DNA of 64,000 bases, from contig CT868062.1 in the NCBI GenBank assembly GCA_000165425.1, positions 1 through 64,000 on the forward strand, in the 5' to 3' direction. This stretch comes from Paramecium tetraurelia. Lineage: Eukaryota. How positions within the stretch are numbered: position 1 is the stretch's first letter; each line of letters opens with the position of its first letter. A program made the translations under genes and the position numbers. The notes below the pieces were generated by a model. The model searched no databases. It was not told where the DNA came from and was given only the letters and a program-made list of their open reading frames with translations. Below, piece by piece: positions 2,880 to 64,000 of the stretch.

Positions 2880-5800
2880 TCATCCTTTACTTTGTTCTTT
2901 TTTTTTCCTAATAAATTCTTTTATTGAATTATATCTTTCTTTCATATCCTCATAAAATTGCTTAAACAGGAAAATTAGCTGTACAAATATGGAGAAGCCT
3001 ATGAAAAATAGAATAATCCAGCCTAACATATACTTTTCATCAAATGTTAATATTTGACTAATATCATGAATAGCTAAGACAACAGTCATAAAAATAATTA
3101 TGAATATGCACATGTCTGGGATTGCTGTTTAAATTAAGGTCTTTTTATTTTCGAAAGGATTTTGATAAAGAATCAAAGCCAAATTGGAAAAGCATGATAA
3201 ACAGCAAAAGGATGTTTACAGCAAAGGTAATTCATAAAAATAAACAGTAAAGAAGATAAACATGGTCTTACGGATCAAGTTTACTATACAGTAGTTTTTA
3301 GCCAAATTCTTATTAGTGTTGATTCCTTCATATAAGGAAGAATAATAGTAGGAAAATTGTTTATTTTCATAAAGAATGGGGTGCTGGGAACAAACAAATT
3401 TATACAATCTAAAAACCGTTACTATGAATAGTATTCCCAAATAAGCAAATGCGATGTTAATGATAATAATTACAAAGTCTAAATTCCTTGTGTATTTTAA
3501 TTAAAGTACGCATGCTAAACATATATCTAAGAACACTAAACCAATAACTTGGATTAATTTTGCTCTAAAATTCTGATTGAACCACACTGCCTCCTTATAA
3601 ATTAGATCCAATATATGTGGAGGTTTATGTGTCTGTTGAGAGAATTACTTTATAATCTATTCTGATTAATTGATACTTGGATCTATATTGCTTTATTCTT
3701 ACTAATAAAGTGAGAAGATTTTTATTTAATGAATTGTTTTAGTTTTTTAATAATACTTATTATTGATCAAGTAAACATAGAATCTTGATACAAAATCTAA
3801 GATGAACACAAGAACGATCAAAGCGATGAATAATTGAATATTATTGAAAAATAAGGGGTTAACATCTTTCTCTGTAAATTTAGGAGGAGCTTCAAAATAA
3901 TATGCATCACCGGGTTAATTTAATGATAGGACATCTGGGATATTGATTATATCACCCCATTCTAATTAATTGAAAAACATCTTGACATTTAAGGGATAGT
4001 CTACGTTTAGGAAGTAGAAATTATTGATCCAAGTCAAAATATCTAAAATGGTCCAGAAAAAATTAAATCCGCCTAAAACTATTGTTAGTGGTCCAATCAG
4101 TTGAAGTAAAAATGTAAATGTAGATGAAGCTGCAACTACACTTTGTGCTTAGGCTTATTATTCTTAATTGTAATAGACCTTTTTCCTGGGGACTATCACT
4201 ATTTCTCTGGCTTCTTCAATGAGAATTCTATTTGATTCTTTAACTAAAGGCACAAGCAAATGAATAAGATTGGATTCTAAAATAGTTTTGAAGAAGTCAA
4301 ACCTTATCTCACACCCTACCTTATTGTCCTCTATCTCAGATTTTTTCAAAACTGAATAATTAAATTCATTTGTTTAGAATTCTTCTATGGTTATTTATAA
4401 TTTATCACAAGCTCCTTCCAAATCTGCTTCTCCAAACAGCAAATCAATGTCGCTTGTAGTAGTAGAATTCTTATAAGAAATGTCAATGGATTTTTTTGGT
4501 GGTACAAAACAAACACCTTAATTACAAATAAAATCTTTTTCTATGCTACATTTAGAGTTACATCCATCCATGTCTATATTATTCCCGTCATCACATTACT
4601 CAATCCCTGCAATAATGTTATCACCACATTTAGGGATACACGATTTTAATTATTTATCTAAGTACAGGCCTGAGATATTATCACATGTGGAGCAATCCTG
4701 TGTAATGCACTATTTACAATTGTTGGGAGAATTTTCACATTCTTCACACTTCTCTGAACATTAATTACATGAGTTATCCTTTAGAAAATACCCACTCTCA
4801 CATTTCTAACATTCAATAATATACGAATCTCTGAAACTACATTCAAGACAGTGATCTTGACATTTATAACAAAAACTTAGGCTACTGGTATCTTCTTGAC
4901 ACTTGTAATTTGGATCCACTTTGCATTAAGTGCACCCATCTCTAGGTATATCATTATAATCATCACATTCCTCATTTCCATTCTTGATTCCATCTCCACA
5001 TTCAGATAGGCATTTCTGTTGATTTAATTTGAATCCTAATTGGCATTCAAAACAAATCCCCTTTTAGCAATTGGTGCAATTCTTATCACATTGATAACTG
5101 CATTCAAAACAACCATCATAGGGTTGAGTATTGCTATCATCACAATCTTCTTTGGCAGCTATTATTCCATCTCCGCATCTAGATTCACAACCATTTGTAA
5201 AGTCATCGTAATATAACCCTTGTTAATCATCACACAATTTCAACTCTTCACAAATTCCTTTGGACTAATTCAACACAAGTGTATCCTCACATTATAAGCA
5301 CTTACCCAACTGACAATCTAAACATTCCAATTGGCATTGATACTTACAATTATAGCAACCATCATATTTAAATTCATTACCATCTTCACAATCTTCGTTC
5401 GATGCAACTAGGTTATCCCCACAAACTGAATAACAAGAATTATTTACGACATCAAAATAATATCCATATTAACATAACAAACAGATTTCATGAAAATGTT
5501 TACAATATTAAGGTTTCAGAGTCTAACAACTATAGCAATCCTTATCATTAAATTCACATTATTCATCAACGGCAAGGATTCCATCCCCACACTAAGAAAT
5601 ACATTGGTTTCTTTAATTTAGATAATAGCCCTCTTAGCATTTGACACAAACCTCATTATTACATTCAATGCACAATGGAAAACAATAATTGCAATAGAGG
5701 TTAGGAGATATTTTCATATACAACTCACATTAGGTTTATGTTTCTTAATGAAGTATACAAGTTTCATTGAATTCATCATAATCAGCTTAAAGATTGCATT

Positions 5801-40763: not shown

Positions 40764-41198
40764 ATGTTGAGATTGGCCACTTAGGCAATAAGAAGCATGG
40801 TGCAAATTATGCCAGTTATTCGGCCTATTCAACTTTGTTAGAAGCCTGTGCAATTTTTTGGATTGGCGAGGTTATTTAAATAAACTCGTATCAGTGGGCA
40901 GGCTAGATCTAAGACGAAGTCGTCGGGATCGAGTTGGAAGAAGAGGATTAGGAGTCAGAACAGATTATATAAGATTGGGAATCACAAGGGGTTGATGAAG
41001 AGGGTGAAGATTGTGGGTCCGAGGAGGGCGAGAAGACTGAAGTTCAAGTCTCCAGGGTCTAGGCATTTGAATCGAAATTGTTCGAAGGCGAATTTGAGGA
41101 GGAAAAGGCGAACTCGATACATAAGTGATGTTGATATGCCGAGGATGAGGAAGTTGTTGCCGTTGATGAAGAGGCAGAAATGCAAAAGGGGATCTTGA
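40764..41198 (+). CDS. MRPL35: Mitochondrial ribosomal protein bL35m precursor, 144 aa
   Basis: Presequence-like MLRLATQAIRS. Core YKIGNHKGLMKRVKIVG...PGSRHLNRNCSKANLRRKRRTRYISDVDMPRMRKLLP fits the L35 pattern. Confidence 0.82.
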
Positions 41199-41257
41199 GT
41201 ATATAAAAAGAAGGGAGAAGCAATAATATTTTATTTCAAATATATTATTTAAATAAT

Positions 41258-41735
41258 ATGATCAGAGGATTACGATTGTTGTAGATGAGGCCAATCTTTT
41301 GCTTTGCTGCAGACAAGACTCCTGCGACCACATAGGGCAAACAATAATAGGCAAAGCCAATTCAAGTCTATAAAGACGGATAATTGATAACAAAGAATTA
41401 TCTCTAATTGAAGAAGTCCTAGGATATCGAAGGGTATGTGCTCACTTTGGTGAAGAATTATTACAGAACAACAAACAAAGTAAGAAATGATAATAATGTT
41501 CAGTCGGCTTTAACTCTGGATTCTGAATTGGAATAGCATGGATTGGACAGTTTGGATTCGATTGAGTTGTCGATGCAAGTAAGGACATATTGAGTAAATT
41601 TAGATTGAGGAGGATTTGGGATATGTGATTTCAGCTGAAACTCTGCCCGTTTTGAATAAGCTTAGACACTACGTTAATTACATCAAATAAGTAGAGCAAT
41701 ATAAGGTGGAGAACAATGCTTCCCCATTGGCATGA
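41258..41735 (+). CDS. Mitochondrial acyl carrier protein (NDUFAB1/SDAP-like)
   Basis: Presequence-like MIRGLRLLQMRPIFCFA. Phosphopantetheine site LEQHGLDSLDSIELSMQIEEDLG. Two introns (24 and 25 nt). Confidence 0.92.
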
Positions 41736-41946
41736 TTAATATCATAATGCATATTCAGTATTAATAACAAAATATTAATTTTCGTTTGTTAATTTGCGTG
41801 TGTTTAGGGATGAAACAAATGATAGACTAAAAGTTCTGGTTTAAGAGACGCAATCGAAATTCTAGAAAATTAGTAATGGGTATGAGATTCATTTGCACGA
41901 ACATCAAAGATTTAAATTAATATTTATATTAAAAATAAAATCTTCC

Positions 41947-44900
41947 ATGCTCCTTATTATTTTGAGCTTATGGACAGCTATTGCAAACGTGGCCAAGAAT
42001 GGCTGCAGTAATCATCACTTATATGCTAGCATCAAAACTGGACAAAATATCAATATTTCCGACAACGAACGAGATTTTAACCTGGCAAATCAAATCTGAA
42101 TTTTTTGATGGAGCTGATTTGACCTACACTTTAAGTGACTCTCAATAGAAAGAATTTCAGATCATACATCCCTTCGAACAAACTGGAAGAGATTCCTCAC
42201 ATAAGAATGGTAATGAAATAATATTCCATATTAAAAGTTGCCTCAAATATTGTTGCAGCCAAAGCAGCTAGAATATCCTCAAGTGGATTTTGGCTCAATA
42301 TGTTCGCGTTCCTAGATTAATCTGAAGATGAAGTTTATTTAAATATTGCCGAAGGGTACAATAACAGTTCTATATACAATAGTTCAGATGTAAGGGCATC
42401 TCCTTATTTCAATTAACGCTATTTAGTTACCAAAAGAAACAACTCAGAAATAACCTGCTTCGATGTTGATTTTACAAACACCCAGCAATACATTGTGGAT
42501 TGCCAAAAGTAAGTAGTCCAAGACGATAAAATCATATTACAAAATATATTTTTTGTACTCTCCAAGGATGGAACCAAAAATCAAGTGTTCACTGAAAAAG
42601 CCATCTTTTAAACCTATAAATAGAGGTTCCTTGGACAGTACACTGTAACCAATGCTCTCGGAATCACACATCAATACCTCTTCAGAGTGACACCAGCCTA
42701 CGCTGTTAGTTTAGATTCCGAATTGGCCTCAGACTCTTTGGTTGAAGTCTACTTAATATCTGCTTCTGGTGAACCTCAGAACACCAACTTTGTATTAGAC
42801 AAGGCTGTCTTGGCAGATACTTTGGGAGTTCCCAAAATCGACTTTTCTTTGGTTGATTTCTCTGTCCAACCAAATGGAGATATCTATTTGTTAGATGCCT
42901 TCAACGGTCTGTACATAGTCAAATATTTGCCAAATGGAGAATGGGAAGTGCAGAACATTGTCTATCCAAGAACAGGACAGGCCTTCGCATTTAGTGTGAA
43001 CTCATTCATCAAGGAAGATGAGTCATTGGCCCATGTGATTGTAGTGCAGGGATATAATTATTTCATTCAAATTGAGAATATGGAATTCAAATACATTTAT
43101 GATTTGCCATTCATTCAATTGGAGTATCCTGCCTACATTAAACTCTCTTAGGAGAATGTCATCATTAGAAATGAACACACCCTCTACTTATACAACATAG
43201 ACACTGAGAATGTCCAATTAAACTCCAGGTACACTCTCAGTTAAAAGGACATCATCTTGTTGAATCCTTACTTACCTGATTTGGTGGTCATATCAAATTT
43301 ATTATCCAAAAGATACACCTTATCCATGGGCCATTTGAAATACATGGGCAGTACAGGGGCTAAAGCAGTGAAGGACATTATCTTAACAGCCTACGCTCCC
43401 AACGAGTAAAAATGCTCAATCACCATCTCCTATCAAATATTGAATGACAGAGACCCTCAGATCTATAAGTTGGCCAATAGTGCCCATCCATTCCCTAAGA
43501 CTCTGGTTGAAGGAGACACGCATCAATAATTGCAATCTCAAGCATCTGGACCAAATATATAATACAAATTAGGCAATAAAGAATTGGAAGACACTCAAAT
43601 TTAGGGAGTCATCAATAAGAGATGGGTATTGAAAAAGGATTCCATTGTTTGGCCTACCAATGTTGTCTATGCTGATGTGTTGGTGTTAGAAAAGTAGACC
43701 TAATTTTATTAGATCATCCAAACTGATGACTTGAAATTGCAAATATGGCTTTGTGATCACCCCTCAATATTTGAATAAGAATTCAATTGCTAAAAAATAG
43801 TATCTGGTATTGACTTGAAGGTTACTGTTAACAAATAAACTTTCACTTTATGGAGACACGATTTAAACAACATATACTTTATGTACAAAGACACTGACTT
43901 TAGTGTGATAATCAAATATTATTATGCAGGAGAATTGAAAGTCTTCAAGCAATTGACTTATGATAAAACAGACCCTATGAACAAAATCAAATCACTATTC
44001 TTCGCTGATAACTATTTCTTTATTATCAAAGCAGACGATACCATCTTAGCATACTCCACCTATGATCATGAAAATCATGTCTTGGCCATAGCTGATGCCA
44101 ATACTTTCAAGCCTTATGGCTACTCCTTAAATTGGAAACCCTAGAGATTATTTGGAAATAGAAAGCTTCATCCCAATCTCATTTTTGTTGTTAACCAAGA
44201 CAATATTGTTCTTGTCGATTTCCACTATAAATTCACTTTTCTCCAAGAATTCGCATTCAAGGCTGGCCTCGAAGCAGAATTGGCCATTGCTGAAGACACC
44301 TTCTTCATTGTCTATGGATAATCAACTCAAGGAGCTAGAGATGGCTTCATTGAGGAATATGATTTCTCAAGATTAAACAATATCTTCAAGATCAAGACCC
44401 TCCAATTGTATTGGTATTAAATCACCTCGCCTTTGACTGTCGACTAGAGTGAAGAGAATGGAAGACTATTCGTAAGAGCCTATTGTAAATACTCAAAAAA
44501 AGCACATATCTTGGTGTTCACTCCTGATACTCTGTAACATGACACTCTTTTTGACGCTTGGAGTATCTCAAATGAAAACATTCCAGATGACGATAAGATT
44601 GTGATGGCTGTCGATGGAGACTAATAGATGTTCTTGTACACCTATGTAGATGGGTAGACCACCTTAGTTTCAGAGATGAAGAATTCCGTCATGACTCTTA
44701 AGGTTAATTTGGATAATGCCATGTATAATTCAAATATGAATTTGAATCTGATCGTGTCTAATTATGATTATCCAGATGAACCCTTCAACACAGTCAAAAT
44801 ATAGGATTAAGTGCAACTCATCAACACTTAATCAATAATAGAAATAGATAATACTAAATTCGATCTCTTCAAATCTGGAGTGATATTAAATTCTAATAGT

Positions 44901-47900
44901 TAATAAAAGAATGTTGAATTGGGCACCCAATGGTTCTCTGGTCAATTGGTTGGCATTGATTTGGAATGCGAACAATGTGAAAACCACATTATTGTTCAAA
45001 ACATTTTGGAAACCAATAATCCAAAATTCTTCAATGGATTTGAAATCAGAGAAGTGATTAAATATAATGATGATGCTAATATCTTTGTAGCCACGAAAGG
45101 ATTGATATTTACACATCCCGATAACACCTTGATGGCCACTTATCATTTCGATTTACCATCTCCAACTTATCGATGTTATCAAGCTTAAGTATCATCAGAT
45201 AAACTCCTCATTTACACTCTTTGCGAAGATAAAGGATAGTATTCCATTTATGTCACCGGATGTCTTTCTGTCACTGGATGTTCTCCATTAGGCGAGAAGT
45301 TTAAGATTGAACAGGCTTCAAAAATACAATTAATAGACAATGACATAATGGTTGTTTTACACACTGATAATTTCTAATACAGTGACGTTGATGGTCGTAT
45401 TGTTATCTATTAATTGAAGAAGGGATTAAAAACTTGGAATTTGGAAGTCTTGGATGTGATTGCAACTTAAACTTTGAATTCATAATTGGAATCACCCTTA
45501 GAATACTTTAGACCAAGTGATTTCACAGTCATTAAATAATACTAAAATTAAGATCAAACACTATATAAGATTATCATCAGCAATTCAAAGAATGGACTTG
45601 TATTCTATGATTTTACATTGACTAATATGAGATATCAATTCTAGTCAGTTGAATCAGTAGATTTATATAACTATTTAAATTATGAAGTCAATTAATATGC
45701 ATTTTCAAACACTCACTTCTTACAAGTTAGATTAACCGAACATCCAACATATGATAAAGATCAATAATAAATTCAACTTTAATTGTTGATCTAAACAAGC
45801 AATGCTGCTCATTATGGAATTTCCTTTACCTTCAAAAAGTAAGATAAGTCAGCATCCACCAAAATCAATTCAAAACAATTAGATTTTGTATTGAACAGAT
45901 ACTCCAATTGGCCTTCAATTAATAAAATTGCTACAAATGGTAACTACATTGCTATCCCCTATTTCAATGATAATGCACTACTTGTAGGACTATATAAAAA
46001 GTCTGCTTCCATTCCCACAACAATTATTAGTGGAACATACTTGTAATATATATAGGGATAACACATATCACCCTTGAATATGGCATTGTTCTTCGATCTC
46101 TCAAACGAGAAGTCACTGTATGCAAGTGAATTATCAGGCCCACTGAAAAGTTATGCATTATTAGATTCTCCAATCATTACTTTCAATAATCAAAATGGAG
46201 ATTTGAAAAATTAAACAGTTACAGTCTTCTTGCAAAATGATTTCAATATAGAAAAGACATAATTCAAATTAGAAGTCCGACCAATAGATTTAAATGAATG
46301 CAGAACCAAAATAACCAACATTTAGATTTACCCTTCCACTACCGAAGTCATGTCATGGCAATTATCAAATGGAATATTTGAGGGAGTTGGTTTGAAATAT
46401 ACCATCGAAGATAATTAAGACTTCACAATCATCCAGCCCATTACATAAATTAGTTCATCATAACACTGTACACAAGGTAAATCTTATAGTCTATATATAA
46501 TTAGTAATTGGATAGGTATCATCAATCAAGGCCTAATGGTTGCTGAGAGAATGGAATGGCCACTTTGCATTCTTGGACTACAGTACTGCTACAAATGGTT
46601 TGTATTACACCAAAGTTGCCGCTATGTAGAATCAAGCTCCTAGTTTCTCTGAAATAGTTTATGTAGATCCTGAAGCACCTACAATAAAATGTTTTGATTT
46701 CGACTATCTCAATTCTGAATCAGCAGATAATTTTATCATCGATTGTCAACTTGATCAACAACAAATCATCTACATAATCAAGGGGAAGACAATAAATTCT
46801 ATTTCCAAAATCAAATCATAATTCACAACTAATAAATTGAGATGGTTCAACAGATTGCCTTATGATGATGCCTCCTATTATTTGAGAGTGACTCCAGCCT
46901 TTTCGATTACAGAAGACGGCTCTGTTGGCAAAGTTTCATAAGTTGAACTCTTCCATTATGATGGCCAAGAAATAACCTTACATTCTACAATCGATAATGC
47001 TAAGTTCGCTCAATTGCTCAAAAAAGACAAGATAGATTTCATGTTGGTAGACTACAAGGTGTATAATGATGGCACTCTCTATCTTTTAGACCAGAAACTA
47101 GGAATTATCAAATTGTAATACAATCACAAAGATAAAGATTGGAAGCTTTTGGATCAAATTAATTTCACCTTATAACAATATGTAGCCTTTGACATAGATG
47201 ATTATGTGAATGAGAAAGGATAGTCTGTCTAGCATATCGTAGTATTGAGTTACAACTACTTTTTCGTTTTGGAAAACAAAGTCATAGTTAAAGTCATAGA
47301 TTTAGGTTATTTTGCTACAACCTATCCATAATAGATACAAATAAGTTAAAGAAACATCTTTATTCAACATGATAATGCTGTCTTTGTTTATGGATTCAAT
47401 GATGAATCAATTACCTTGTTAGATAAACAAGCAATCGTAGGAGGATACTCTGTTGATAAGATCAAAGATGAGTTTATAGCTATAGGTTAGAAGGAATCCA
47501 ACTTATACTTCTTCAGTTAAGGTGCTTTGAAGTATGAATTCAAATCCGGACAGATCAAGGATGGAGAAGTCAAAATAGTTGCTAAATCATTAAATAACTA
47601 GCAATGCCAATCAAATATCAAATACTCGATCATCAAGAGTGACGATTCCAAGATCTACAAGATAACTGAATCTGATGCACCCTTCCCACCTGCTGCAGAT
47701 GAAAACACAGTTATCGATCTCGGAGAGTTAACTTCAGGACCAAATTAAAAATATGAGGCTGTATACGAAACGACCGAAAATAATTGTTTTATGACAGAAT
47801 TAGAAGCATAAGAACAAATTCGAATTGTACAAAATACAAAATTTGAAGCTTAAGGCCAACCCTCAAATATATTATTCTAAACCTCCATTTTCCAACCTAA

Positions 47901-50551
47901 ATAATCAACTATCTTCAAAATATTCTAATTGAAAGATAAGAGTTTAGCTCTGTATTAGTCCGACCCCAAACTTGAAAATAATATTTACAAATTCACCTAA
48001 GTTGGAACTATAAAAGATATTACAGTTGAACTGAATGATTAGACTTTCTCTATTTGGTAGGTTGGAGATGTAATTGTAAGATTTGCGACTGCTATCAATG
48101 AATATAAAATCAATCTATATAGTTTTAACTTTTTTATGATAGAATTACTTAAAACAATATCATTCGAAGAAAAGGAGGGTTAATAAATAGTAAGTATCTT
48201 AAATTAAGGAGAATACTTATTTATTTTATAAAAGAACGGAGTGCTACATAGTTATTAAATATCAAAATTCAGCTTTGTTAATAAGGTAACTGGAAATGAT
48301 TTGATTGGATATGGTGGATAATGGATGCCAATTAAATTGTATGGTAATAGAGTGTTAAAATCAAATATTGTATTTGTTTAAAATGAAAACAATATTGTAC
48401 TAATTAATTACTTTAATACAGAATTCATTTTCGTTAAACAAATGGATTATACTAAGGGTGATGAGATATATATTTCATCTGCTAAGGATTCATTCTTTTT
48501 AGTTAAAAATAAGGAAATAATAGAATATAACTATTAAAATTTATTGAACATTTTCAAATCAAAGACAGTTGAATTATTTGGATACACTATAGTAAATCCA
48601 TTAACTGTTAAATTTTAATTATCAACTGGTAATCTGATCATTAAAACATCTAAAGCATAGGATTTCTATTTAAATATATTTAGACCATCTACTACTTAAC
48701 ATGACACATTCTACTTAGCAATCTCAGTATTAACACTTAAAGATGATCCTCAATTTACCATATCAGTTGCAGAAGATGATGCAATACTGCTTAGTATCAA
48801 TCATTCTCTCCTACAAGCAATTCACAAGATTGAAAAATCTCCTCTCTTAGTTTTTAATCCAAAATTTGATGAGAAAACTTACTTTTATAATGCAAAGGTG
48901 TCTGTAATTGTGAAGAGCCAGGATGACTAGAATAATTAAGTTACATTTAAATAGAATGTAAGACTTGTAAATACATTTTCATCTTTGAGTGTCAAAAATG
49001 CAAATTATACCATTTCGACCAATTCAACCAAATCTGTTGAATTCCCAGTTGAGGCAGTTTATGGACAAAACATTTTAACAACCCTTAAGACCTTCTATGT
49101 GACAGAGGGCAACGTTTACTTGAAGGCTTTGGTCTAATAACTTCCGCGAAAGAAGATCGTTGACTATAAAATAAATTATGGTTATTCCAAGGACAAAGAT
49201 ACTTTCTATTTACAAGCCAAGAATACTTTATTAATTGGTACCAATTTAGGTGAAGATTTCTCCTATAGACCAGCAGAATATACACTATCTGATCAATACA
49301 ATTGCTTTAGAACAGACAATTACAAAGATATGTTTTATTCCATTTGTAATAATGGAGTTGAGAATTAATTGGTGTTGACTAAATGCGTAAACAAGAAATG
49401 TCAGTTGGTTAATTCATACCTTGCAATTCCTAATGGATATTAAGTTATAGCCCCTTATGAGGATTACATTATCGTGTTGTTTTACAACCCCTTAAGTCCG
49501 CAAGATTAGGATGGAGAGTACAAGATGTATAGGATAATTCAGAATGATGCATTCTATGTCTAAAAAGAGGTGATGTCAATGAATTTGGAGTTCATCAAAA
49601 CCAATTTAAATAAGGATGCAGTAACTTTCAGGCCATCTGGTATGACAGGAGTTGGAGTTGAAATAAGTAAAGAAACTTACGTATATTTGTCAATGGTAAC
49701 TGACTGCTTTGATGAATTGAGGTACAATAGTTTCTTGTTCGAAAACAAAGATATTCAGCCTACTAGATTTGGGTCAATTTCACTAAAAAAATTGTTGAGT
49801 AAACAAATCATAGATCAGACTCTCTTCTTATCCACTTAGGTGAAGTCTTCCTTGTTTGAGAAAGATGTGTTAACAGTTGATTTAGTGATTTTGACTTCAG
49901 ATTCTGGAACATTCTGGATTGTGGTGAAATTTAAATACAACAAGGACGAAAAGAGATTTGAACATCAGCAATCAGATATAAAGAGTACATTTGTTAAGTA
50001 CGGGGATTGGAAAGTACTCAATTATTTGGCAGTTGATTCTTCATCAATTGGAGTTGCTTATTATAAAGACAATTAAGTGACTGTGGGCATTTATCAGATC
50101 CTTAAAGAAAGTCCTTACTTTTTGACAACTGGAGGTAATCAATTTGTGGTCACCAATTAACAAGATTTGAGTCCATTAAACTTCTTAATGTTCATATAAG
50201 TATATATTTTATATCTATTTAAAGACAAACTAATTGTACAACAGCAACCCGAATGAAAAAGGATTAACTAAATTCATGTTGAATACAAATAGTTCAATTG
50301 TGATAACTGAGCCTTAAAAAGTGGAAAGTTAAAATTTGACTTTGACCTTCAAGAATGATTTCTCAGAGGCAGTGTAAAAGATTGCTCTATAAATTATACC
50401 AATTGATGATGACGACGACTCTAGCAAAGGACTGGGGGCAGTTTGGATAGTGTTGATTGTGCTTAGTAGTTTGGTCGTTCTGGTTTTAATGGGTTATGGT
50501 TACTATAAGTCATAAGACCCAAATAAAGAGGAGGATGCTCAATTAGTATGA
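41947..50551 (+). CDS. Giant type-I membrane protein A (~2,820 aa): signal peptide, two ~1,400-aa units, one TM helix, ~15-aa tail
   Basis: Starts MLLIILSLWTAIA. Five introns (22, 28, 27, 28, 25 nt) give an 8475-nt frame consistent with track ORFs 42687, 43881, 44919, 49570 and 49840. TM helix AVWIVLIVLSSLVVLVLMGYGYY. Ends EEDAQLV*. Confidence 0.88.
48151..48690 (+). repeat. ~540-bp high-identity direct repeat, second copy at ~56837-57376 in the neighbouring gene
   Basis: Both copies begin aaaacaatatcattcgaagaaaaggagggttaataaatagtaagtatcttaaattaaggagaatacttattt and stay highly similar through tatatttagaccatc. Confidence 0.9.
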
Positions 50552-50627
50552 AATATTAAAATAAAAACAATAAAATATTGTAATTTAAAATGCCTAATCT
50601 ATATCCATGTAATAAATAATTTAATTA

Positions 50628-53600
50628 ATGAATTAAAAGATTACATCATCTTTGATAGTATTCTTAATTTGTCTTTCAATTGTGAATGCCAAGTCAACGG
50701 GGTGCTGTAATAATACATCTTATTATCTTTAGCTTCAAAAGTGGAGCAGTTGCAACTATTTCCCACGAAAGGTGAAAAATTGCGAATCAATCTACATGAT
50801 AATCTATTTGAGGGAGAGGATCTCACATATGAGTTGCAAGACACATATTTTAAATTAATTAATCCTGTACAAAATACCGGAGGCAGCTCAACTCATTATA
50901 AACGTATATTGACATGTTAATTATCTAGCTGCATCGAACATCAGGGCAGCAAAGCCATATCACACAAAAAAAATGCAATCTTGGTTGAATTCATTTGTAT
51001 TCTTGGACCAAAACGCACTGGAAGTGTCCATTTAATATTCAGAGGGGTAATTGTTAATGTAGAATTTAGAACTGCCTTGGACAAAATTCCAACTCCAGGT
51101 TTCGGGACCAAAGTAGTTATTGCAAATGTGGTCGATAATCTAGAGTGTTATGACGTAGAATACATTGATAACGATAAATTTATAGTGGATTGTCAAAAGG
51201 AAGTCACAGAGAAGTTAATCAAAAAATAAATTGATGTGTTCTATATTTACTCAAAACAATCATAAAAAGTGACATCGTTTGAAGATGAAGCATCAGTCAA
51301 AATCTACAATTAAAGACGTATAGGGTTATATTACTCAACCAGTGCATTAGGAAAGGAAACTACTTACATTGTGAGAGTTACACCAACCTATTCGTTGGAC
51401 CCAAATGAATAACTCTCTGGAAATTCAATCGTATAAGTTTACACATTGAGTGACAACTACTAACCCTTGCCTCGTCCATATATTCTAGACAATGTGACTA
51501 TGGCATTTCTATTAGGCAAAACTGATGTAGAACTTTCAATTGTGGATTTCGAAATGACATACAATGGATACATTTTCCTATTGGATGCCCAATACGGTCT
51601 CTTTGTGGTCAAATTCTAACCAACTGGAAAGTGGGAATTATTTGCACAAGCCGACTTTTAATTAGGCAGATCCTTTGCTTTCGATATCGATTATGAACAC
51701 AAAAAAGATGGCTCAGAACTTGGCGTAGTTGCAGTTCTTGGATACAACTTCTTCGCTATTTTGGATACAGAAAAATCTTATGTTCACAACCTTCCATTTA
51801 TGTAGTTGGATTACCCAGCCACTATTAAAATATCATAAGACAATATCATAGTAAGAAGTGACAAGTAGGTTTATTTCTATAAACTTGATGTGGATACTGA
51901 CACCATCTACCTAAACTATAAGGTGGACATTCCTTCCACTGATGTCTTATTGGTGAATCCATAAGAACCAGATCTGATCCAAATTAGTACTTAAAGTTCA
52001 AACAGATACACTATTTCCAATGGTTATTTAGCATACAACGGAAGTGATAAGGTCTAAGACAAGAAGGTGGTTGCTATCAAGGCCAAAGCTCCAAATAAAT
52101 AAGAATGCTAAGTCTTCCTTTCATATCAAATTATTGAAGATAATGAAAATTGGATTTATCAATTGTTTGATAAACCTGTGCCTTTCCCAAATGTGATTGC
52201 TGATGGGGAAACTGATTAAGTTTTGAAAAAATTAGCATCTGGACCAAATCTCTAATATAGATTAGTTAAACCAACTTAATTGGAAGCCACAAATATCAAA
52301 GCCACCATTAGATCAAGAGTTGAATTAAGTCTAAATCAAGAGCTACCCAAAAATGTAATTTATGCAGAGATTGTATCAACAGAAGACGATACTCAATTCT
52401 ATTAAGTTTTGTAGACTCAGGATTTGAAGGTTCAAATCTTAAATTGTGTTCACAATTCTATTTATGTTGAAGATGCATTTTGTGAACTCTTAGTAGCAGA
52501 TATAGGAATCTCAAGCAAAGTCAGTAAACAGAACTTCTCCATTTGGAACAGACAGGGCATAATATATTTCATGTACATCAGTGAGTAATACAATGTTGTG
52601 ATTCGAGCAATTCATAATGGTGCAATAACTCCAGTGAAGACTATATCATTGGATTCTACAGACACAGCAAACAAGATTTAAAGTATTTTAAATTGTGGAG
52701 ATTATCTTTTGGTTCATAAGGCCAATAATGAAATCGTAACATTCTTAATTTACAGACCAGAACTATTCGCACTCACAACTTTAAACAAGAATTCCTTCTC
52801 ACAATATGGTTACAATGAAGAATGGGAACCAAAAGCACTCTTCACAAATAAAAAGTTGCATCCAAATATTCTGTTCATCTTACACAAAAATCATATCTTG
52901 ATGTTGGATACAGATTATGGAATGTTTTCATTCATTAAAACCATTCCAATTACTCCAAATCTAGATTATTCAATTGCTATTGGATAAAGTACATTCTTTG
53001 TTGTCCAAGGAAAATCAGCTCAAGATGTCTATGATGCTTAAATCTATGAATACAACTTTGCAGAAATCAATCATGTCTATTTGTAGAAGAAATTGTACTT
53101 GTATTGGTATGACATATCTACTCCATTGAACGTTGATTTCAGCGAGGAAACTGGTAATTTGTTTGTCAGAGGAGTCTGTCTATATTGCAGTAAATCCTTT
53201 ATCTTGGTATTCAAACCCAACACTCCTCAACACGAGGCCTTGGTCTAAGCTTGGGATATTGCTGATGTCGTTATTCCAGAGACAAAATCCATCTTGATTG
53301 CTGCTAATGGATTCAAATAAAACTATTTATACTTGAATGTTGAAGGTGAACAATCAATCTTTGCAGTTTACGATCAAACCACAATGACTGTTGAATCATT
53401 CATCGATTCGACTATTTATTAGGATACATATTCATTGAATTTCTAGATCAGAAACTACAATTTCCAAGGTAAACCTGAAAAGTTTAACACTGTCGATATC
53501 ACTTAAGATGTTACCACCATTAGTACTTTAACCTAAATCAATTTGGATGAAAATGCCTTCCCTTATTCAAAATCAGGAATACAGATCTTTTCAACTGATG

Positions 53601-56600
53601 ATTAGGCTACTTTTGATTTGGGTCAAGGTTGGTACTCTGGTTAAATTGGAGATTTCGAAATTGATTGCGATCAGTGCGAAACCAATGTTGAATTGTAAAG
53701 CACTGTTGATTTACTCAATCCAAAGATCTTTAATGGTTATGAGATTAGAGATCATGTCAAATACAATGATAAGTTTAATATCATGTAAGCCACAACTGGA
53801 TTGATATTTGTTAATCCTGACAACTCATTGGCCTCAGTCTATGATTTCGATCTCCCCAATTTCGAATATCAATGCTATTAAGCCACTGTTTCTGAAGACA
53901 AAATGGTTGTTTACTCATTGTGTAATGATGGAACTGAATTCACTGTTTATGCCACCGGATGCTTTTCCATCACTGGCTGCTCTCCATTGGGTGAAAAATT
54001 CAAACTCGGAGTAGCTTCAAAAATTCAAGTAGTATCCAATGAACTCTTGGTTGTTTTGCACACTGATGCCGATCATCCAGAACTTATTTAGGATGGCAAA
54101 ATCGTTCTATATAGAATTGCTATGGGATTAGACAACTGGAAACTTGAAGTCATTGAAATCATCGATTTGAATTATCTTAATTCTGTATTGGCAACTCCAT
54201 TGGAGGATTTCAAACCAGCTGATTTCTAAGTGGTTAAACAAAAATCCATATCAAATGGCAAATATTCTTATAAATTGTTCATCAGTGATGCAACTAGTGG
54301 TTTCATTTTTATGGATTTCTCATTTTCGGAATTACCTGAATATTAGTTCTTGTCCATTGAATCCCTCAACCTCCACGAATATTTAAATAGGCAAGTCGGT
54401 CAATACACACTCCCAACAACTAAATTCTTATCATTCCAATTCGTTTGGGATCCGATCTACGAATGGAGTTCAGACGAATTGAGAGTCTACCCTCTGATTT
54501 TGACATCTGATGTCTCATAATACGGGTTCAAGTTTGTCTTCTCTGCTCAACCTACCTCCAATACCTTACTCAACATTAAAGCCTTATCTGCTGTCATAGT
54601 CAAATATGGAGACTGGACTCCAATGAATAAACTAGCCATCCAAAATCAGAACTTACAATTAGCCATTCCATATTATTAAAAAGATTAAATTGTTGTAGCC
54701 GTCTATAATATAGATATAATTATAGAAAATCCATTCGCTACAGTTGTTCCCACAATTAGTGTTGGCACCTATGAAGTATACTATTCAGAAGGTCAGTGGT
54801 TAAGCCCATTAAATCTAGCTGTGTTCTTTTCCAAAAAGGGTTCAATTCTTTTTGTATCCCAATTGTAAGGACCCCTTTAAAGTTACGGAATCTATAAATC
54901 ACCAATTTTAACATTGAAAAACCAAGACAGAGACTTAAAGAGCTAAGATATTACACTTTTTGTGAAGAATAACTTTTATGAAAACTATTTAACATTCAAA
55001 TTGTATGTGCAAGAAGTTGATAATCATGAATGTACTGCAAAAATCACAAATCTCCAAATTTACCCATCTACAGGCGAAGTTTTAACATGGAATTTGTCAT
55101 AAAATATTTTCGATGGTGTTTCTTTGAAATATCATTAAGAAGACACTGATGATTTCACAATCATACAACCAACTACATAGATTGGATAATCGATAGATCA
55201 TAAATAAGGTAATGATATATTGTTATATAATTAGTTGCAACATAAATTGTATCTGCAAAGGCACTGTTGACTTAGAATGGGGCCTGGTCCAATCAATTTG
55301 GATTCTTAAACAAGATTGGATCCAAGTATTAAATCCTCTATTCAGACACGTAATTTTTATTTCTAAAATAGTCCTGCAATAAATGCTGCTCCATCATTTA
55401 ACCAAGTTCTTAATGTTAAGAAGATCGATGCAAATCTTAATTGCTTAGACTTCGTACAATTGTCCGTTACTAGTTTTGTTATCGATTGCTAAATCCAAAA
55501 TAATAAATTCCTAATATTGATCAAGGATACCGATGAAACCTAAACAACCCCAATTGCAAACACTTAATTAAATAGAGCTTTAGGTACATACAAGATTAAC
55601 GATTTACAATTTGTCGTAAGAGTTACATTATCTATCACAAATGATGGACAATTAGCCAATGATTCATTTGTCGAACTATTCTAATATGCCAGTGGTTAAT
55701 TACAAGCCAAGTAAACCTTAGACAAATCTAAATTATCTACTATCTATGGAAAATAAATTGATGAATTGAATATCGTTGATTTCAAGATTGGATTAAATGG
55801 ATCGATTTATTTGTTAGATGCCAAGCTGGGAATCTTTGTTGTTAACTATGATATAGATTGGAAGTTCCAAAAATTGATCACATTTAGATTTGGTCAAACC
55901 TTTGCATTCGACAGAACCATACTCGAAAATAAAGAGGAAGCATTTGTAGTTTAAGGATATAATTACTACATAGTAATTGATTCTAATGGACAAACCAAAA
56001 AGGTGTAAGATTTGTAATTCAATACCATCACCTACCCCTAATCCATATCAGCAAGTGCCAACTTCGTTTTTGTCAAGCATTAATCATCTTTATATGTCTA
56101 TCACTCTGATGACTCTAACACTGGCTTGATCGATTTAATTGAATCACCCAATCTTACTGCTATTGTTAATCCATTTATTCAAGAAATCGTAACACTTTCT
56201 CTTCAATCCTCTGCCAGATGGAACATAAGCTTAGGATCACTGAAATTCAATGGAGTTAATCAAGCATCTTAAGGATTCAAAGACTTAACCATAATAGCCA
56301 CCTCATAACATAAATTGACATGTTCCACCAGGATCTAATATCAAGTGATTGAAAGTAGCAGTAAAGCTCCAATCAAGAAAAATAAGTCGGATCAACCATT
56401 CCCATAAGTTTTCGATGATATCTTTGAATAGTTCTAATTGGGTAATCTAATTTCGGGTCCAAATCTTGAATACAGCTTATCATTACCAAAAACGCCACTT
56501 GATTTCAGTGCTTAAGTTGTCTAAAACAGAGAAATATAAGTTTCAAATTGGCCCAAGACACCTTTATATAGTACTGAATTGGTTGGAAATGATAGAGAAA

Positions 56601-59600
56601 CTTTGTTCCAAATTTTCCAGACATAAGATAAGAAGTTAACAATTTCAATTTGTGTTTTGACTGATCATATTAAATATGTTTGCTAAGATTATGGAAATGT
56701 TTAGCTTTAAGAAAAAATATCTGATCAACTATTCAGTATATGGTAAGATAGCGACAACATTGTGAGATTCATTACCATTTCAACCTCATATAAAGTAACA
56801 AGTTATCTAGCTCCAGACGGTATTGTCATTGAAGACAAAACAATATCATTCGAAGAAAAGGAGGGTTAATAAATAGTAAGTATCTTAAATTAAGGAGAAT
56901 ACTTATTTATATTATAAAAGAACGGAGTATTAAATAGTTATTAAAGCGAAAAATTCAGCTTTGTTAATCAGATAACTGGAAATGCTTTGATTGGATATGG
57001 TGGATAATGGAAGCCAATTAAATTGTATGGTAATAGAATGTTAAAATCAAACATTGTATTTGTTTAAAATGAAAACAATATTGCTCTAATTAATTACATT
57101 AACACAGAATTCATTTTCGTTAAACAAATGGATTATACTTAAAATACTGAAATCCACATTTCAGCCGCTAAAGATTCATTCTTTTTTGCAAACGATAAGG
57201 AAATATTGGAATACAATTATTCAAACCTTTTGAACATTTTCAAATCAAAGACAGTTGAATTATTTGGATACACTATTGCTACTCCATTGACTGTTACATC
57301 TTAATTATCAACTGGTAATCTAGTCATTAAAACATCCAAAGCATAAGATATCTATTTAAATATATTTAGACCATCCCTTACATAGCATGATACATTCTAT
57401 TTAGCATTTAAATTAAATGGTGTTAAATAAGGAGATCCATTTTAATTGTCTTTAGGAGGTTCTCTATACATCATAACTCTTGCAAATGGAGAAAAGATTC
57501 AATAATTAAACTTTATTTTATTGAACCCTGAATTAATTGTTATCCCAATCAAAAAGCTTTAGAAATTTGTTTCAAACTTCCATGTTATAATGGATATTAT
57601 GAATGGGGATGACTAAACTTAAAAAGTGCATTATGAGTAAGATATAAAAGTAGCTAATACATTCACAAGTTTGATAGTTAATGATGAAGAATATTTAAAA
57701 TCAATCGAAATAAATGAAAATGATGGAAAAACTGAAGTAGCCATTAGATCTGATTGGATTGGAGGTTAAATAATAAGTACAGAATTGTCTTAGTAATCAA
57801 TCACTGATGACATAACACTTTTACCTTTTGTAAGCCAAGATTAGGCAGTCTTAATGGATTATTCAATTTATGATGTTGCTAAACCTTAGGCTGTCACCTT
57901 TTTGCAAGCTTCAAACACAGTTTTGTCATTCAAGGGAGACGACTTGAAAAATGCTCAGCCTGTTTTGACAAAATTGTCGGAGCACTATAAATGCTTCAGA
58001 TTAGAAGCCGATAGCACAAGACTTTATTCTGTTTGTAATAATGGTGTAGAAGATTAAATTTAAGTGGCTACTTGTGATGATAAATAGAAATGTTAAAGAG
58101 AAAATGCTTACATCTCAGCTCCATTCGCAACTTAAATTGCTGCTTTGGCTTAAGATGTTATTGTTGTTCTTCATACTGATTCATTGAATCCTGAAAACTA
58201 TGATGGATATATTACAATTAGAAAATTAGTATAAACTGATGGAATCTGGTCATCCACTACATTATTAACCATTGATTATGACTTCATTAAATAGAAATTT
58301 GGAGCATAAGCACCTAAATAGTTTAGACCATCTTCATTTATCCATTCACCAACAGGAAACAGTGTATCTCTCTACTATTTATAATTGATTATTACTGATA
58401 GCGTTAATGGTTTATTGTTTGTAGATTTAACTCTTTCAAAGACAACTTCAGAATTGTAGTATCAATTTTCAGAATATAAACTTTTGAAAGATTGGCTAAA
58501 TATTGATCAATATGCTACTGATGATACTCATTATTATTAAGCCTAAATTGTAACATCATAAGTTGAATATCCTACCAAAAAAACATTAAAATTAGCTCTT
58601 GTAACTGACATTTCATCCTCATATGTTTTTGAATTAGTTTTTGCAATTCAAGCCAATGTTTCTTGTAAACTAAGCACAATAAGAACTATTTTTGTTTTGA
58701 ATAGATATGGTAATTTCAAGGCATTGAACTATGTTTCAGCCTCATCATCCTCAATAGCAATCCCCTATGTTAATAACCTAGAGGTGATCATTGGAGTTTA
58801 TAAGATTCCAACTGATCTATAGAATGGTGCAGTTTAAACTATATAGGGATCTCACACATTTGCTCACTTTAAGAAATAAATCACTCCTCAAGATTTCTTA
58901 ATTTATAATACAGACAGTCTATTCTTGACAAGTACTACATAAATGGGAGTCTATCAAAATTAAGTTAGATATCAGTAAGTATTGAAATTCGGAGAACCTA
59001 AAAACTTGCATAATCAAAAGTTGACTTTGACATTTTAGAATGATTTTAGAAGAGTAGTCAGAACTATAGATTTATCCATAATACCTGTAAATAAGGATGA
59101 ATGCAAAACCAAGTTGACAGATCTTAAGATTTACCCATCCCAAGGCGAAGTTATGCAATGGGCATTGACTTAAAACTTCTTCGATGGTGTTTCTCTGAAA
59201 TATAGTGTAGACTAAGCTGACTTTTCAGTAGTTTAACCATTGACTTAGGTTGGATAATCAGTTAATCATATATAAGGTAAGGATATATTATTATATAATT
59301 AGTTGCAACATAAATTGTATCTGCAAAGGCACTTTTGACTTAGAATGGAGCCTGGTCCAATCAATTTGGATTCTTAAATAACGATGGATTAAAATATTCA
59401 ATTTACTATTCAGACACGTAATTTATTTTTCTAAAATAGTCCTGCAATAAATGGAGCTCCATCTTTTAACCAAGTCCTTAACATTAAGAAAATGGTAGAG
59501 CATTCCATTTGCGGAGACTTTGTGTAGCTATCTAAAACTGAATTTGTTGTTGATTGTTAAATTAATGATAATAAAAATTTAATTTACCTAAATGGAAATA

Positions 59601-62600
59601 TTGAATTAAATACAATTATGATTGAAGATACTTTAATGAAAAGATTATTAGGATCATATCAAATCAAGGAAGTGAAATATGTTGTAAGAGTTGCATTGTC
59701 AATCACAAGCGAAGGTTAGTTGGCTCATAAATCATACGTGGAATTGTTTTAAATATAAAATGATGGCCCTATACATTTAGCAACATTAGATAAAGCTAAA
59801 TTAGCTGAAATTACTTTCAAGTAAATAGATGAATTGAATATCGTCGATTTCAAGATTGGATTAAATGGATAAATTTACTTATTAGATGCTAAGATGGGAA
59901 TCTTTGTTGTATATTTCGATAAAGTTTGGAAATTCTCAAGATTTATTGAACAAAAGTTTGGCTAAGCCTTTGCATTCGATAGAGCCGTGCTTAGTAATAA
60001 ATAGGAAATATTTGCAATCAAGGGATACAATTACTATGGAATAATTAATAAAGATGGAAAGATAATAAAAATATAGGATCTTCCTTTTGCTAGTGTGACA
60101 TATCCTTAACAGATTAGATTAAGTGGCAAATATGTGTTTTTACAAAATCAAGGAAATCTCTACATCTACCATTCTGATGAGAATAATACTGGTCTTATCG
60201 ACATTGTAAATCTGACAAACTCAGCAGGAATCGTAAATCCTAATAGTTAAGAAATAGTAACTGTTTCATTAACATCCTCATCAGCTTGGAGCTTTAGTTT
60301 GGGATCCTTGAAATTCAATGGAAATGCATAAGCAAGTACTAATTTCAAAGCTGTGACAATTTAAGCCAAATCTTAACACAATCAAATGTGTTATTCTAGA
60401 ATTTACTATCAAGTATTGGCAAGCAATAGTGAGACTATCTACAAAAAGGTTGAGACTGAAACACCATTCCCTAATGTTTTAGATGAGAATGATGAACAAA
60501 TTAAGTTAGGAAGTTTGGTATCAGGTCCAAATTTGATATATGAAATTGTTCAACCAAAATCACCATTTGCCTCAAGGTTGAATCAATTTTTAGGTGTTGC
60601 TGCAGACCCAGATTTCGATGTGAACGCTCAAATTGCACATTAGAGATCTATTCAAGTTACTAACTGGCCAAAGAAAGCATTGTATTAGACATCCTTAGTT
60701 GCGAATAATTAAGAGACTCTTTTCTAAGTTTTCTAATAAGAAGACAAGAAGCTTATTATTTATTCTTGTGAATTGGTTGATCACGTAAAATATGAGTGCA
60801 AGGAGTATGGTAATTTGTAAGTGCAAGTGCAATTATCAGATTAGATCTTCAGCATATGGTAAGATTCTGATAATGTCGTTCGTTTCATTACATTGGATAC
60901 ACCATTTATCATTAAATTCTTGGAAATTAAGAATAATAAGACTGTTTAATATGGATCAATCAAATTAAATGAAGCAGAAGAGAAGGATGAATTAAAAGCA
61001 GTAGCATTCTAAAATCAAGGAGAAAATCTGTTTGTAATTTAGGAGAGTGGAGTTTTATCATCATATTCTACTGAGTCTTTCTTAATTATCAACTCAATTA
61101 CAGGCTAAAACTTGATTGGATTCTAAGGAGAATGGAAACCTATTAAATTATACGGAAATAGAATTTTAAGACAAAATGTTATTCTTGTTCAAAATGAGAA
61201 TAATGTCGTGATTATCAACTACTAACACCAAGAATTCATTTATGGATCTAACATTGCCTATACCAAAGGCAACTAAATATACATAGCCTAAGCTACTAAT
61301 TCATTGTTCCTTGTCAATAACAAAGACTTAAGTGAATACAATTACGAATAAGTTAACAATGTTTTCAAACAAAAGACTGTAGAACTATTTGGATATCAAA
61401 TCACACAACCTTTGAGTGTCTCTTCACACTTAAAAACAGGTATTTTGGTTGTTAGAACTACAAAGAATGAAAATGTTTACTTGAATATTTACAAACCAGA
61501 TCAATTACAACACGAGACATTCTATTTGGCTGTTAAGATTAATGGCAAGGTAGATGATGCATTTACATTATCTGTAAGTGGATCAGACCCAGTAGGATCA
61601 GCTTACATAGTTGCCTTAGCCAATGGCGAAGCTGTTTAATAATTGGAATTTGTTGTACTTGATCCAGAATTGATTCTTATACCCAATAAATAAAAACAAA
61701 AGTATCTTACTGATTATGAAGTTTCAATCAATGTTAAGAATGCTGATTCATAAAATAACAATATCCTTCCATTCACTTAAAAGGTCAAGGTAATCAATAC
61801 ATTCACTAGTTTAATTGTTGATGATACAAAGGCAACTTAATAAATTGAAATTGAAGCCAAGCAAAATTCAACTGCTGTCAAGTTGACAAATGGATGGATT
61901 AGTGGATAGTAGGCTTATTGTACATTAACATAAGAAAAAGCTAACGATATTGTCGTTTAATCATATCTCTACGAAACAAAGAACTCTGCATTGAAGAATT
62001 ATTAATTCAAAGACGCTTAAGCCTTCTAAAAGAATGTTATCTTTTAAGCTATGAATAACGTACTCTTAATGAAAGACAACAAATTAGAAGAAAGCACACC
62101 TCTTCTTGAGGCATTAGGTCAAGAATATGATTGCTTCAGATTAACATCTTTTGAAAAGTCAATATATTCTGTTTGTAATAATGGTGTAGAAGATTAAATT
62201 TAAGTGGCTACTTGTGATGATAAATAGAAATGTTAAAGAGAAAATGCTTACATCTCAGCTCCATTCGCAACTTAAATTGCTGCTTTGGCATAAGATATTA
62301 TTGTTGTTCTTCATACTGATTCATTGAATCCTGAAAACTATGATGGATATATTACAATCAGAAAATTAGTATAAACTGATGGAATCTGGTCATCCACTAC
62401 ATTATTAACCATTGATTATGACTTCATTCAATAGAAGTTGGGAGCATAAGCACCTAAATAGTTTAGACCATCTTCATTTGTTCATTCATTAACTCATTCT
62501 GATGATAACTCACTTTCAGTTTAATTCATTATTTCTGATAGTGTAAATGGTTTAGCCTTTATTGATTTCAGTTTCCCTAAGAATACATATGAGCCCAAAT

Positions 62601-63416
62601 ATTTATTCATGGAGTATTAGTTACTTTAAAAGTGGCTGAATGATAACAAACATTATGCTAATGATAATACACATTACTATGCTAATAAAATTGTTGAAGA
62701 ATCCATCAAGGAGAAAATCAAGAGCATCACATTAGTAGTAGTTACTGATAATTCATCATCTTATGTTTTCAATCTCTAATTTGCCATATTAGACAATTAA
62801 TCAAACAAGTTAACAAAAACAGAAGTTAAAGTGGCTTTGAATAGATACGGAACATGGAAGGCATTAAACACAGTTGCTGCCAATAAATAATCAGTTGTTG
62901 TAGCCTTTTACAATAATTCAAAAGTCGTCGTTGGTGTTTATCACATCACTGAAAATGCTATCTCTGTAATAAATGGATCATTTTCATTCACAACACAAGG
63001 AGTTTAAAAACTGGAACCAGTTGATTTCCTCCTTTATTTACAAGTAAATTTATATTTATATTTTTTAGGAATCTTCTTTGATAGCCAGCAAAGTCAGCAA
63101 GGGCTTGTAACAATATGAGATCAGGAACGATATCACTTTAAGCTTCGGAGAGAGTGCCAAGTTGGAAAACCAAACCTTAACCATAACATTTTCTAATGAT
63201 TACAGATAAGTGTCGAAATAAATTAAATTGAGTATCAAACCAGACGATGGAGGAGATGATGATGATAGCTCAGGCTCTAATGCTTGGTGGATAACCCTTG
63301 TAGTTGTTGGATCCTTAATCGTACTAGGATTAATTGGATTTTTCTTCTACAAAAAGAGAAAAGACAACGAAGAGGAATAAGAAGATTAAGACACTGGATA
63401 TGCACCTCTAAATTGA
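50628..63416 (+). CDS. Giant type-I membrane protein B (~4,200 aa): signal peptide, three ~1,400-aa units, one TM helix, short acidic tail
   Basis: Starts MNQKITSSLIVFLICLSIVNA. Eight short introns give a 12594-nt frame consistent with track ORFs 52709, 53903, 55766, 60386 and 61412. TM helix AWWITLVVVGSLIVLGLIGFFFY. Ends DTGYAPLN*. Confidence 0.88.
58025..58339 (+). repeat. 315-bp near-identical direct repeat, second copy at 62165-62479
   Basis: Direct comparison by eye shows about 6 mismatches and no gaps; the flanks are far more diverged. Confidence 0.92.
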
Positions 63417-63442
63417 GTTATACATTAAAAACATTATCAAAT

Positions 63443-64000
63443 TCAATCAATTAATTTCTTGGATTAAAATGTCTTTGATCCTATTGTGGGAGATCTTTTT
63501 AATTAAATTGTCGGAGATCGTTTAATCTGTCTTGCTTTATATGCAGCTGCACTTCTGGCCTCACTCATTATTGACTATAATCTGATTTTAAAATCTGAAT
63601 GATAATTTTTCATTAAGCGAACCCACTCTTTGTGAGTCAATTCAATTTACAATTTGGGCTATTCAATCTGACTTAGATAGACAACCAACTTGTAGGTAAG
63701 CATTTGGAATGGATAACTATCAGAAGAAAATTATCTAATTTTATCGAAAATATTTTCTTTAGTCATAGAGCCATTTAATCGAGCTATTATCGATATATAC
63801 AATTATTACTTCTTTTCATATTGATTTCTCTTTTCTCTATCATCATCCTGTACTCCTATTCCTCCTTTTATTTTAATTACTTAACTTCATCAGATGATAG
63901 TTTTGACATCAATTTCATTCTTTCTGTTGCAATTAGCACTTTGTTCTTTTATTTATAATCAAGGAGTGCTGAAAAATACTAATGCACAATATATTAAATA
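63443..64000 (-). CDS. 3' part of a hypothetical protein that continues beyond the window
   Basis: Code-6 frame YFSALLDYKQKNKVLIATERMKL...IKRSPTIQLKRSPTIGSKTFQSKKLID* with a 26-nt intron near 63785-63810. Confidence 0.65.

Follow-up and report, generated by a model that had tools for sequence, protein, structure and literature searches.

Two tandem genes for giant type I membrane proteins with predicted three-propeller repeat units in Paramecium tetraurelia

Introduction

LRP1 and LRP2/megalin are very large type I membrane proteins that carry many beta-propellers and end in an endocytic tail, and in yeast Vps10p the ectodomain is duplicated. Tyrosine- and dileucine-type motifs in such tails bind AP-type adaptors. 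The immobilisation antigens of Paramecium are built differently, being Cys-periodic and anchored by glycosylphosphatidylinositol. Ciliate endocytic, phagocytic, and secretory routes are elaborate, and few cargo receptors beyond the sortilins are known. The VPS10/sortilin proteins of Tetrahymena (SOR genes) have a lumenal propeller, one transmembrane (TM) helix, and a sorting tail, with secretory-granule proteins as cargo (PMC3824020). The ROS1 ectodomain has three propellers interleaved with beta-sandwich domains ahead of one TM helix (PMC11743138), and Paramecium surface antigens are described as large multigene-family surface proteins with gene conversion (PMC4235209, PMC9788069). Here we analyze two adjacent genes, g1 and g2, located in positions 1-64000 of contig C79 (hereafter, the window; 64,000 nucleotides) of the P. 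tetraurelia assembly (72.1 Mb, 697 contigs). Their products are two- and three-unit type I membrane proteins with a predicted ectodomain of serial beta-propellers, and their units have been gained and lost by recombination.

Gene structure and transcription of g1 and g2

Both genes lie on the plus strand, separated by an intergenic gap of 76 bp: g1 at 41947..50551 (ATG 41947, TGA 50549-51) and g2 at 50628..63416 (ATG 50628, TGA 63414-16). When eight introns of 22-26 nt each (50707-50732, 50904-50928, 51047-51069, 55209-55234, 55350-55371, 59277-59302, 59418-59439, and 63044-63068) are removed, g2 forms an uninterrupted frame of 4,197 aa in genetic code table 6, identical letter for letter to the public uncharacterised protein GSPATT00037429001. 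Removing four introns from g1 (42008-42029, 42210-42237, 46477-46504, and 50200-50224) gives an uninterrupted 2,833 aa, or about 2,824 aa when a fifth, inferred intron (42356-42382; 27 nt, in-frame) is also removed; the position of this intron is common to three other units, and it is spliced out in the public model GSPATT00037428001 and in both annotated orthologs compared. That public model equals g1 from a different ATG and hence lacks the signal peptide. Read-through of the TGAs at 55268 and 59336 in g2, or a 27-nt intron there, was ruled out, as two flanking introns shift the frame around them. The first-pass annotation had called the pair invisible to standard-code gene calling, which is true of the code itself (no open reading frame of 200 codons in the region, against five table 6 frames of 1,259-1,572 codons), but both genes are already in the public annotation as uncharacterised.

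Each protein consists of a signal peptide, a very large ectodomain, and a single hydrophobic segment ending 15-21 residues before the C-terminus, in agreement with the one TM helix and short tail first proposed. The signal peptides (g1: 41947..42003; g2: 50628..50702) stay below 1.8 in a 19-residue hydropathy window and were called by eye; orthologs start alike. The TM helix and tail occupy 50423..50548 in g1 (15-residue tail) and 63276..63413 in g2 (21-residue tail). Unit starts at 42004, 46299, 50703, 55031, and 59102 define the arrangement A-B in g1 (unit A: 42004..46298; unit B: 46299..50401) and A-B-B' in g2 (unit B: 55031..59101; unit B': 59102..63239). The motifs by which the units had been recognised were all recovered: the opening motif, F(D/E)G..L.Y, and the closing motif in 5/5 units, the type A motif in both first units, and the type B motif in all three later ones. 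The F.G..L.Y element may resemble cadherin-like motifs. Cys makes up 0.8-0.9% of the residues, and the two proteins carry 11 and 20 N-glycosylation sequons.

Expression was assessed by mapping four of 24 sequencing runs, none recorded as RNA, to 43500-63499, a span that leaves three g1 introns upstream. The contigs of run X7 have none of the ten introns predicted in this span, and the DNA run X18 has them all. Spliced pieces span the unit junctions at 46.3, 55.0, and 59.1 kb; they end at 50597 and resume at 50625, where a DNA contig is continuous. In two stranded oligo-dT runs from one study, depth rises from 2 to 32 and from 8 to 36 along g1, drops to 1-3 past 50.8 kb, and along g2 rises again, to 53 and 80; it resets at the gene boundary only, never at a unit junction. 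Nearly all first mates map to the minus strand, the orientation that plus-strand RNA should give, and both genes are expressed together in both of these raw-read runs. Because spliced pieces cross the unit junctions and depth resets only between the genes, there are two mRNAs, each carrying its units; this rules out the units as separate genes or transcripts. g1 and g2 are thus separate, spliced, expressed genes, each with its units in one frame. Run X18 differs from the assembly by a 6-nt insertion in the last g2 intron (63044-63068) and 15 listed substitutions in 60703-63452, and it is therefore probably from another strain or allele.

Colinear g2 orthologs of 4,194-4,198 aa occur in independent assemblies of P. 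octaurelia (93% identity), P. primaurelia (82%), and P. sonneborni (72%), so that length is nearly constant in four species, and no hypervariable stretch was found at 200-residue resolution. A 7,031-aa P. pentaurelia record (P0065) that could suggest a five-unit fusion was rejected as a merged annotation with the g1 TM helix and tail and the g2 signal peptide in mid-protein; the same record shows that the tandem pair is conserved in P. pentaurelia.

Unit-number change and gene conversion

The two proteins match each other far past chance (BLASTP E = 0 to 1e-128). Identity between units is 40% for A-A, 55% for B-B', 39% for g1 B and g2 B, and 24-28% for A vs B. A midpoint-rooted FastTree phylogeny of 42 units, built on 1,340 columns, places the g1 and g2 A units together as sisters adjoining single-unit genes on contigs C30 and C686; all B units, which evolve faster, form one long-branch clade in which g1 B falls outside g2 B plus B' (support 1.0). 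The tree upholds the architectures A-B-TM and A-B-B'-TM, as originally described.

C79:26-94 kb and C509:205-118 kb are colinear, and their DNA identity of 74-86% identifies the two segments as a genome-duplication pair. The C509 segment lacks g1 and contains a g2 twin with four units. Upstream of g1, at 41178-41736 of the window, lies a gene that by eye resembles a mitochondrial acyl carrier protein (DSLD motif); its counterpart, 84% kept in the C509 segment, is only about 0.9 kb from the g2 twin there, a spacing that marks the loss of g1. Units 2 and 3 of the twin are 97% identical. Unit 3 starts like unit 4 (93% over 150 nt, vs 68% for unit 2) and thereafter follows unit 2 (95-100%), with the switch point inside a tract in which units 2, 3, and 4 are 94-100% alike. 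This chimeric structure marks unit 3 as having arisen when B and B' crossed over unequally. Misassembly is an unlikely source of the fourth unit: there are 54 coding differences between units 2 and 3, 33 of them in third positions (37 synonymous vs 17 non-synonymous). The twin (C509:168446-185031; L041-L044) is split by the public annotation into proteins of 2,286 and 3,206 aa, and it has frameshifts in units 2 and 3 that are clustered as read errors would be; intact, it would encode about 5,500 aa with 12 propellers. In P. pentaurelia, a protein with the twin-type tail has only two units, A-B', the reciprocal kind of crossing-over product. Unit number therefore changes by recombination, with two, three, and four units directly shown among g2 orthologs and ohnologs, and length variation by duplication of whole units, suggested from the window alone, is borne out.

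Conversion tracts were found among the B-type units, all on the plus strand. In g1 unit B, 48151..48720 is 89% identical in DNA to 56837..57406 in propeller 2 of g2 unit B, vs 54% for the units overall (85-93% along the common tract). Within g2, 58025..58428 in propeller 3 of unit B is 92% identical to 62165..62568 in unit B' (core 97-99%, vs 63% overall), and a partly homogenised tract lies near the start of B and B' (55181..55465; 87% and 77% in two windows). The tract matching the latter contains the crossover point of the four-unit twin. For the propeller 3 tract, B and B' are 97-99% identical within g2 and 93-97% within the twin, whereas identity across the twins is 81-83%; the tract was thus homogenised independently twice. 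Short-read contigs break at these near-identical tracts and so cannot phase them, but the g2 proteins from the three independent assemblies above are colinear.

On the tree, the history would run from a single unit through internal duplication to A-B, and then through tandem gene duplication to g1 and g2; a second internal duplication in g2 would precede the split of the sampled aurelia species. Following the last genome duplication, g1 would have disappeared from one twin; unequal crossing-over in a tract homogenised by conversion would have added a unit to that twin's g2 in P. tetraurelia and removed one in P. pentaurelia.

Predicted fold of the unit

In AlphaFold2 models, three modules make up the 1,400-aa unit, and each combines a beta-propeller of the seven-bladed type (about 350-400 residues) with a small beta-sandwich, so that g1 would have six propellers and g2 nine. 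The propeller is apparently inserted into the sandwich, whose strands would flank it. In g2 unit A (plus strand), module 1 (50703..52130, placed via the model of a paralog's module 1) comprises the sandwich N-half, propeller 1 (~50867-52018), and the C-half; module 2 (52172..53521), an N-half with an SGPN motif, propeller 2 (52313-53359), and the C-half; and module 3 (53567..55012), an N-half with W.SG and CxxC, propeller 3 (53702-54898), and the C-half. The same three modules are assigned to g1 unit A by homology. The sandwich is all-beta and confident in both AlphaFold2 models. Cys26 and Cys469, conserved in 26/27 and 40/42 rows, probably staple the sandwich halves of module 1, and twelve Cys positions are conserved. 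The CxxC of the third sandwich (window 53660-53680) is present in first and single units (27/41 rows) and lost in every B-type unit seen, including B and B' of g2. Among 22 sequences, most invariant columns hold Cys, Gly, Pro, or aromatic residues, the only polar invariants being R82, D159, and Q448 (numbering of family member P0003).

The first-pass annotation recognised no named domain. Indeed, neither g1, g2, nor the other full-length members tested match a Pfam family at cut-off; the unit is not featureless, however, given its three predicted propeller modules. No significant relative was found in the PDB by sequence, and Pfam and PDB sequence searches gave no full-length match to a characterised family. 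A plasmid search returned no match, and a viral fold library gave generic propeller matches only (TM-score <=0.27). In the fold-search lists, which were filled by propellers, no chain matched the sandwich and propeller together.

The family in Paramecium and its cytoplasmic tails

Three protein searches of the P. tetraurelia assembly, with a profile over the retrieved stretches, yielded at least 27 family genes, spread over 13 contigs; 24 are single-unit, and the others are g1, g2, and the g2 twin. The basic form of the family is not multi-unit but comprises a signal peptide, a single unit of 1,400 aa, a TM helix, and a short tail; single-unit paralogs are only 20-30% identical. Several of the single-unit genes are clustered (seven at C509:96306-131325 and three at C79:84568-98132), several of them in head-to-head orientation, an arrangement that hints at common promoters or hetero-complexes. 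A TM helix and tail were found in 23/27 genes. The remaining members (C7:127299, C81:87157, C413:23067, and C509:122931), two of which have orthologs that are also without TM, may be secreted or lumenal. One single-unit paralog (C686:278778-282870; L048) is broken by one frameshift, and its P. octaurelia ortholog is intact (1,427 aa); the second half carries the UniRef label 'IgGFc-binding protein N-terminal domain', without Pfam support. Elsewhere in the window, a table 6 open frame of 1,879 codons occupies 2883-8519 on the minus strand.

P. bursaria has a single-unit member. Unnamed environmental fragments match the family at 22-48%; five of these (P0014, P0020, P0021, P0043, and P0046; 264-423 aa, standard-code open) are 22-32% identical to g2 unit A, and such sequences may extend the family beyond the sampled Paramecium species. 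No named homolog was found outside Paramecium, in searches that were single-sequence or word-seeded and non-iterative and so do not show absence from Tetrahymena or other ciliates.

The tails of g1 (15 residues) and g2 (21 residues) contain no signalling domain and would be too short for one. That of g1 has an acidic dileucine-type end (E-x-x-x-L-V; kept in 2/2 orthologs seen), and that of g2 has an acidic cluster followed by G-Y-x-x-L (G-Y-x-x-hydrophobic; 3/3 orthologs seen). A dileucine-type pair or Y-x-x-hydrophobic motif falls within the last seven residues of 12/15 first-extracted tails (7/9 with one gene per clade), compared to a mean of 2.0 in shuffled tails, and 0/20,000 shuffles reached 12. 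Six of eight tails added later fit by eye, without a control, two of them twins of earlier ones.

Discussion

The genes are already on public record without names; neither the family nor its predicted architecture seems to have been described. No paper on the family was found in the accessible literature, outside which most subscription papers fall, and six gene ids are unmentioned there; one PMC5485702 supplement contains none of the gene ids, and the available text of PMC9159632 does not mention propellers. Spatial-proteomics supplements (10.1101/2025.04.24.650466, PMC13742155) may give the location of the proteins. Large type I proteins with many propellers are a known kind, as is internal duplication accompanied by conversion, and no new biochemical mechanism is shown. 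The family also preserves an unusually clean natural record of how unequal crossing-over adds and removes a 4-kb three-propeller block, and the crossover point can still be read.

Short tails with sorting motifs, together with a multi-propeller ectodomain without evident catalytic signature, point to cargo-capturing receptors that cycle through endomembranes. By analogy, we give roughly even chances to the family being adaptor-sorted cargo or surface receptors that work like LRP and VPS10. The sandwiches would form a stalk displaying 3, 6, 9, or 12 propellers, whose non-catalytic binding surfaces would face the outside or an organelle lumen; adaptor complexes would read the tail, and the protein would cycle between the cell surface or Golgi and endosomes, food vacuoles, or lysosome-related organelles. 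The ectodomain would capture and sort cargo as LRP- and VPS10-type receptors do, with added units giving reach and avidity. A more specific version, an independently evolved ciliate counterpart of LRP/megalin with up to 12 propellers on a sandwich stalk and its length tuned in 1,400-residue steps by unequal crossing-over and recurrent conversion of the same tracts, is possible but doubtful. If it were true, the ~27 genes would supply the missing set of Paramecium receptors for taking up material selectively or sorting organelle cargo, and soluble members would be partners or decoys.

Several points weigh against the cargo-receptor reading. The word receptor itself derives from fold and tail motifs, and a common propeller fold does not establish function. 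The tail rule was written after the first 15 tails had been seen, with shuffling as a weak control; 5/23 tails have no sorting motif, and a pure receptor model leaves the 4/27 members with no TM helix found unexplained. As to the fold, the structural match to seven-bladed propellers is full-length, with propeller 2 not searched singly, and the three modules are barely alike as profiles (best probability 51%). The sandwich N-half is disordered in one model, whose alignment had only 5-7 rows there. Both the inserted topology and the Ig-like sandwich were deduced and not read from coordinates, the sole Ig hint being Pfam Big_3_2 at E 0.013, below cut-off, in 1/17 members.

The very long, rigid all-beta ectodomains with their sequons would also suit a structural role in a single compartment (food vacuole, discoidal vesicles, contractile vacuole, or oral region), as its glycocalyx or the lining of its lumen, with unit number setting thickness or membrane spacing and the tail only delivering the proteins. 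Length in fixed steps, the absence of a signalling tail, and TM-less members that could co-assemble fit such a coat; we regard it as unlikely, however, since read depth is moderate (1-80-fold) and low for a bulk coat, 24 single-unit paralogs at 20-30% identity suggest many specificities, and a twin that tolerates two or four units implies that exact length is not critical. Surface recognition of prey, symbiont, or mate, with unit gain and conversion reshuffling the binding surfaces, draws on the gene clusters (seven genes in 35 kb on C509), the propeller 3 tract homogenised independently in both twins, and the faster evolution of B units. The lack of a hypervariable stretch at the resolution given above, a three-unit protein nearly fixed in length in four species, and co-expression of g1 and g2, unlike exclusive antigens, make this very unlikely.

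Less probable still is a role in the secretory pathway as part of a lumenal complex, either scaffold or chaperone (EMC1- or gp210-like), in which membrane and soluble paralogs hetero-oligomerise. Head-to-head gene pairs, TM-less members, the twelve conserved Cys positions, and the CxxC of first and single units are in its favor, but the tail motifs are post-Golgi-type and not a terminal dilysine, and Pfam gave no match to EMC1 or gp210. Ectoenzymes anchored in the membrane, whose propellers would be catalytic (lactonase, hydrolase, or oxidoreductase type), are hardly credible, given that the invariant columns hold only three polar residues and no Pfam enzyme family was matched. A defined ~27-gene family with a predicted architecture unlike any Pfam family or PDB sequence is approachable via Paramecium spatial proteomes and RNA interference.

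Comparison with known systems

WD40-type propellers are 5-12% identical to those of g1 and g2, which have 0 and 2 WD dipeptides and no WD repeats and are predicted to be extracytoplasmic with disulfide-type Cys. FG-GAP repeats (integrin alpha) gave no match in g1, one loose match in g2, and no Pfam match. The surface antigens differ as well: g1 and g2 contain about 1% Cys, have a TM helix and a charged tail, and show no Pfam match to antigens.

ROS1/Sevenless is similar in its three propellers among sandwiches, and ROS1 is among the Foldseek matches (TM-score 0.14-0.18). However, ROS1 has YWTD propellers, nine serial FN3 domains, and a kinase, whereas g1 and g2 have neither YWTD motifs nor a kinase and their sandwiches are apparently split by the propeller. 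No FN3 match was found in Pfam, and the fold lists were filled by propellers.

Likeness to VPS10/sortilin lies in the signal peptide, the lumenal propeller, one TM helix, and a short sorting tail. Yet g1, g2, and 22 aligned members have no Sortilin-Vps10 (PF15902) match, and g1 and g2 have no Asp-boxes; as a positive control, the PF15902 profile detects true sortilins elsewhere in the P. tetraurelia assembly (25 matches), none on C79 or C509. There are also three propellers of ~350-400 residues per unit vs one ten-bladed propeller in sortilins. With LRP, the two proteins share a predicted type I topology, multiple propellers, and an endocytic-type tail, and LRP2 chains are among the Foldseek matches (TM-score only 0.11-0.12). 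Neither protein has a YWTD-like motif or NPxY, their propellers match seven-bladed chains (six-bladed in LRP), their Cys content is about 1%, and eight full-length proteins gave no EGF or LDL-A Pfam match. The best reading, by analogy, is that g1 and g2 would work like LRP/megalin or VPS10/sortilin, or in layout like ROS1/Sevenless, yet belong to none of these families.
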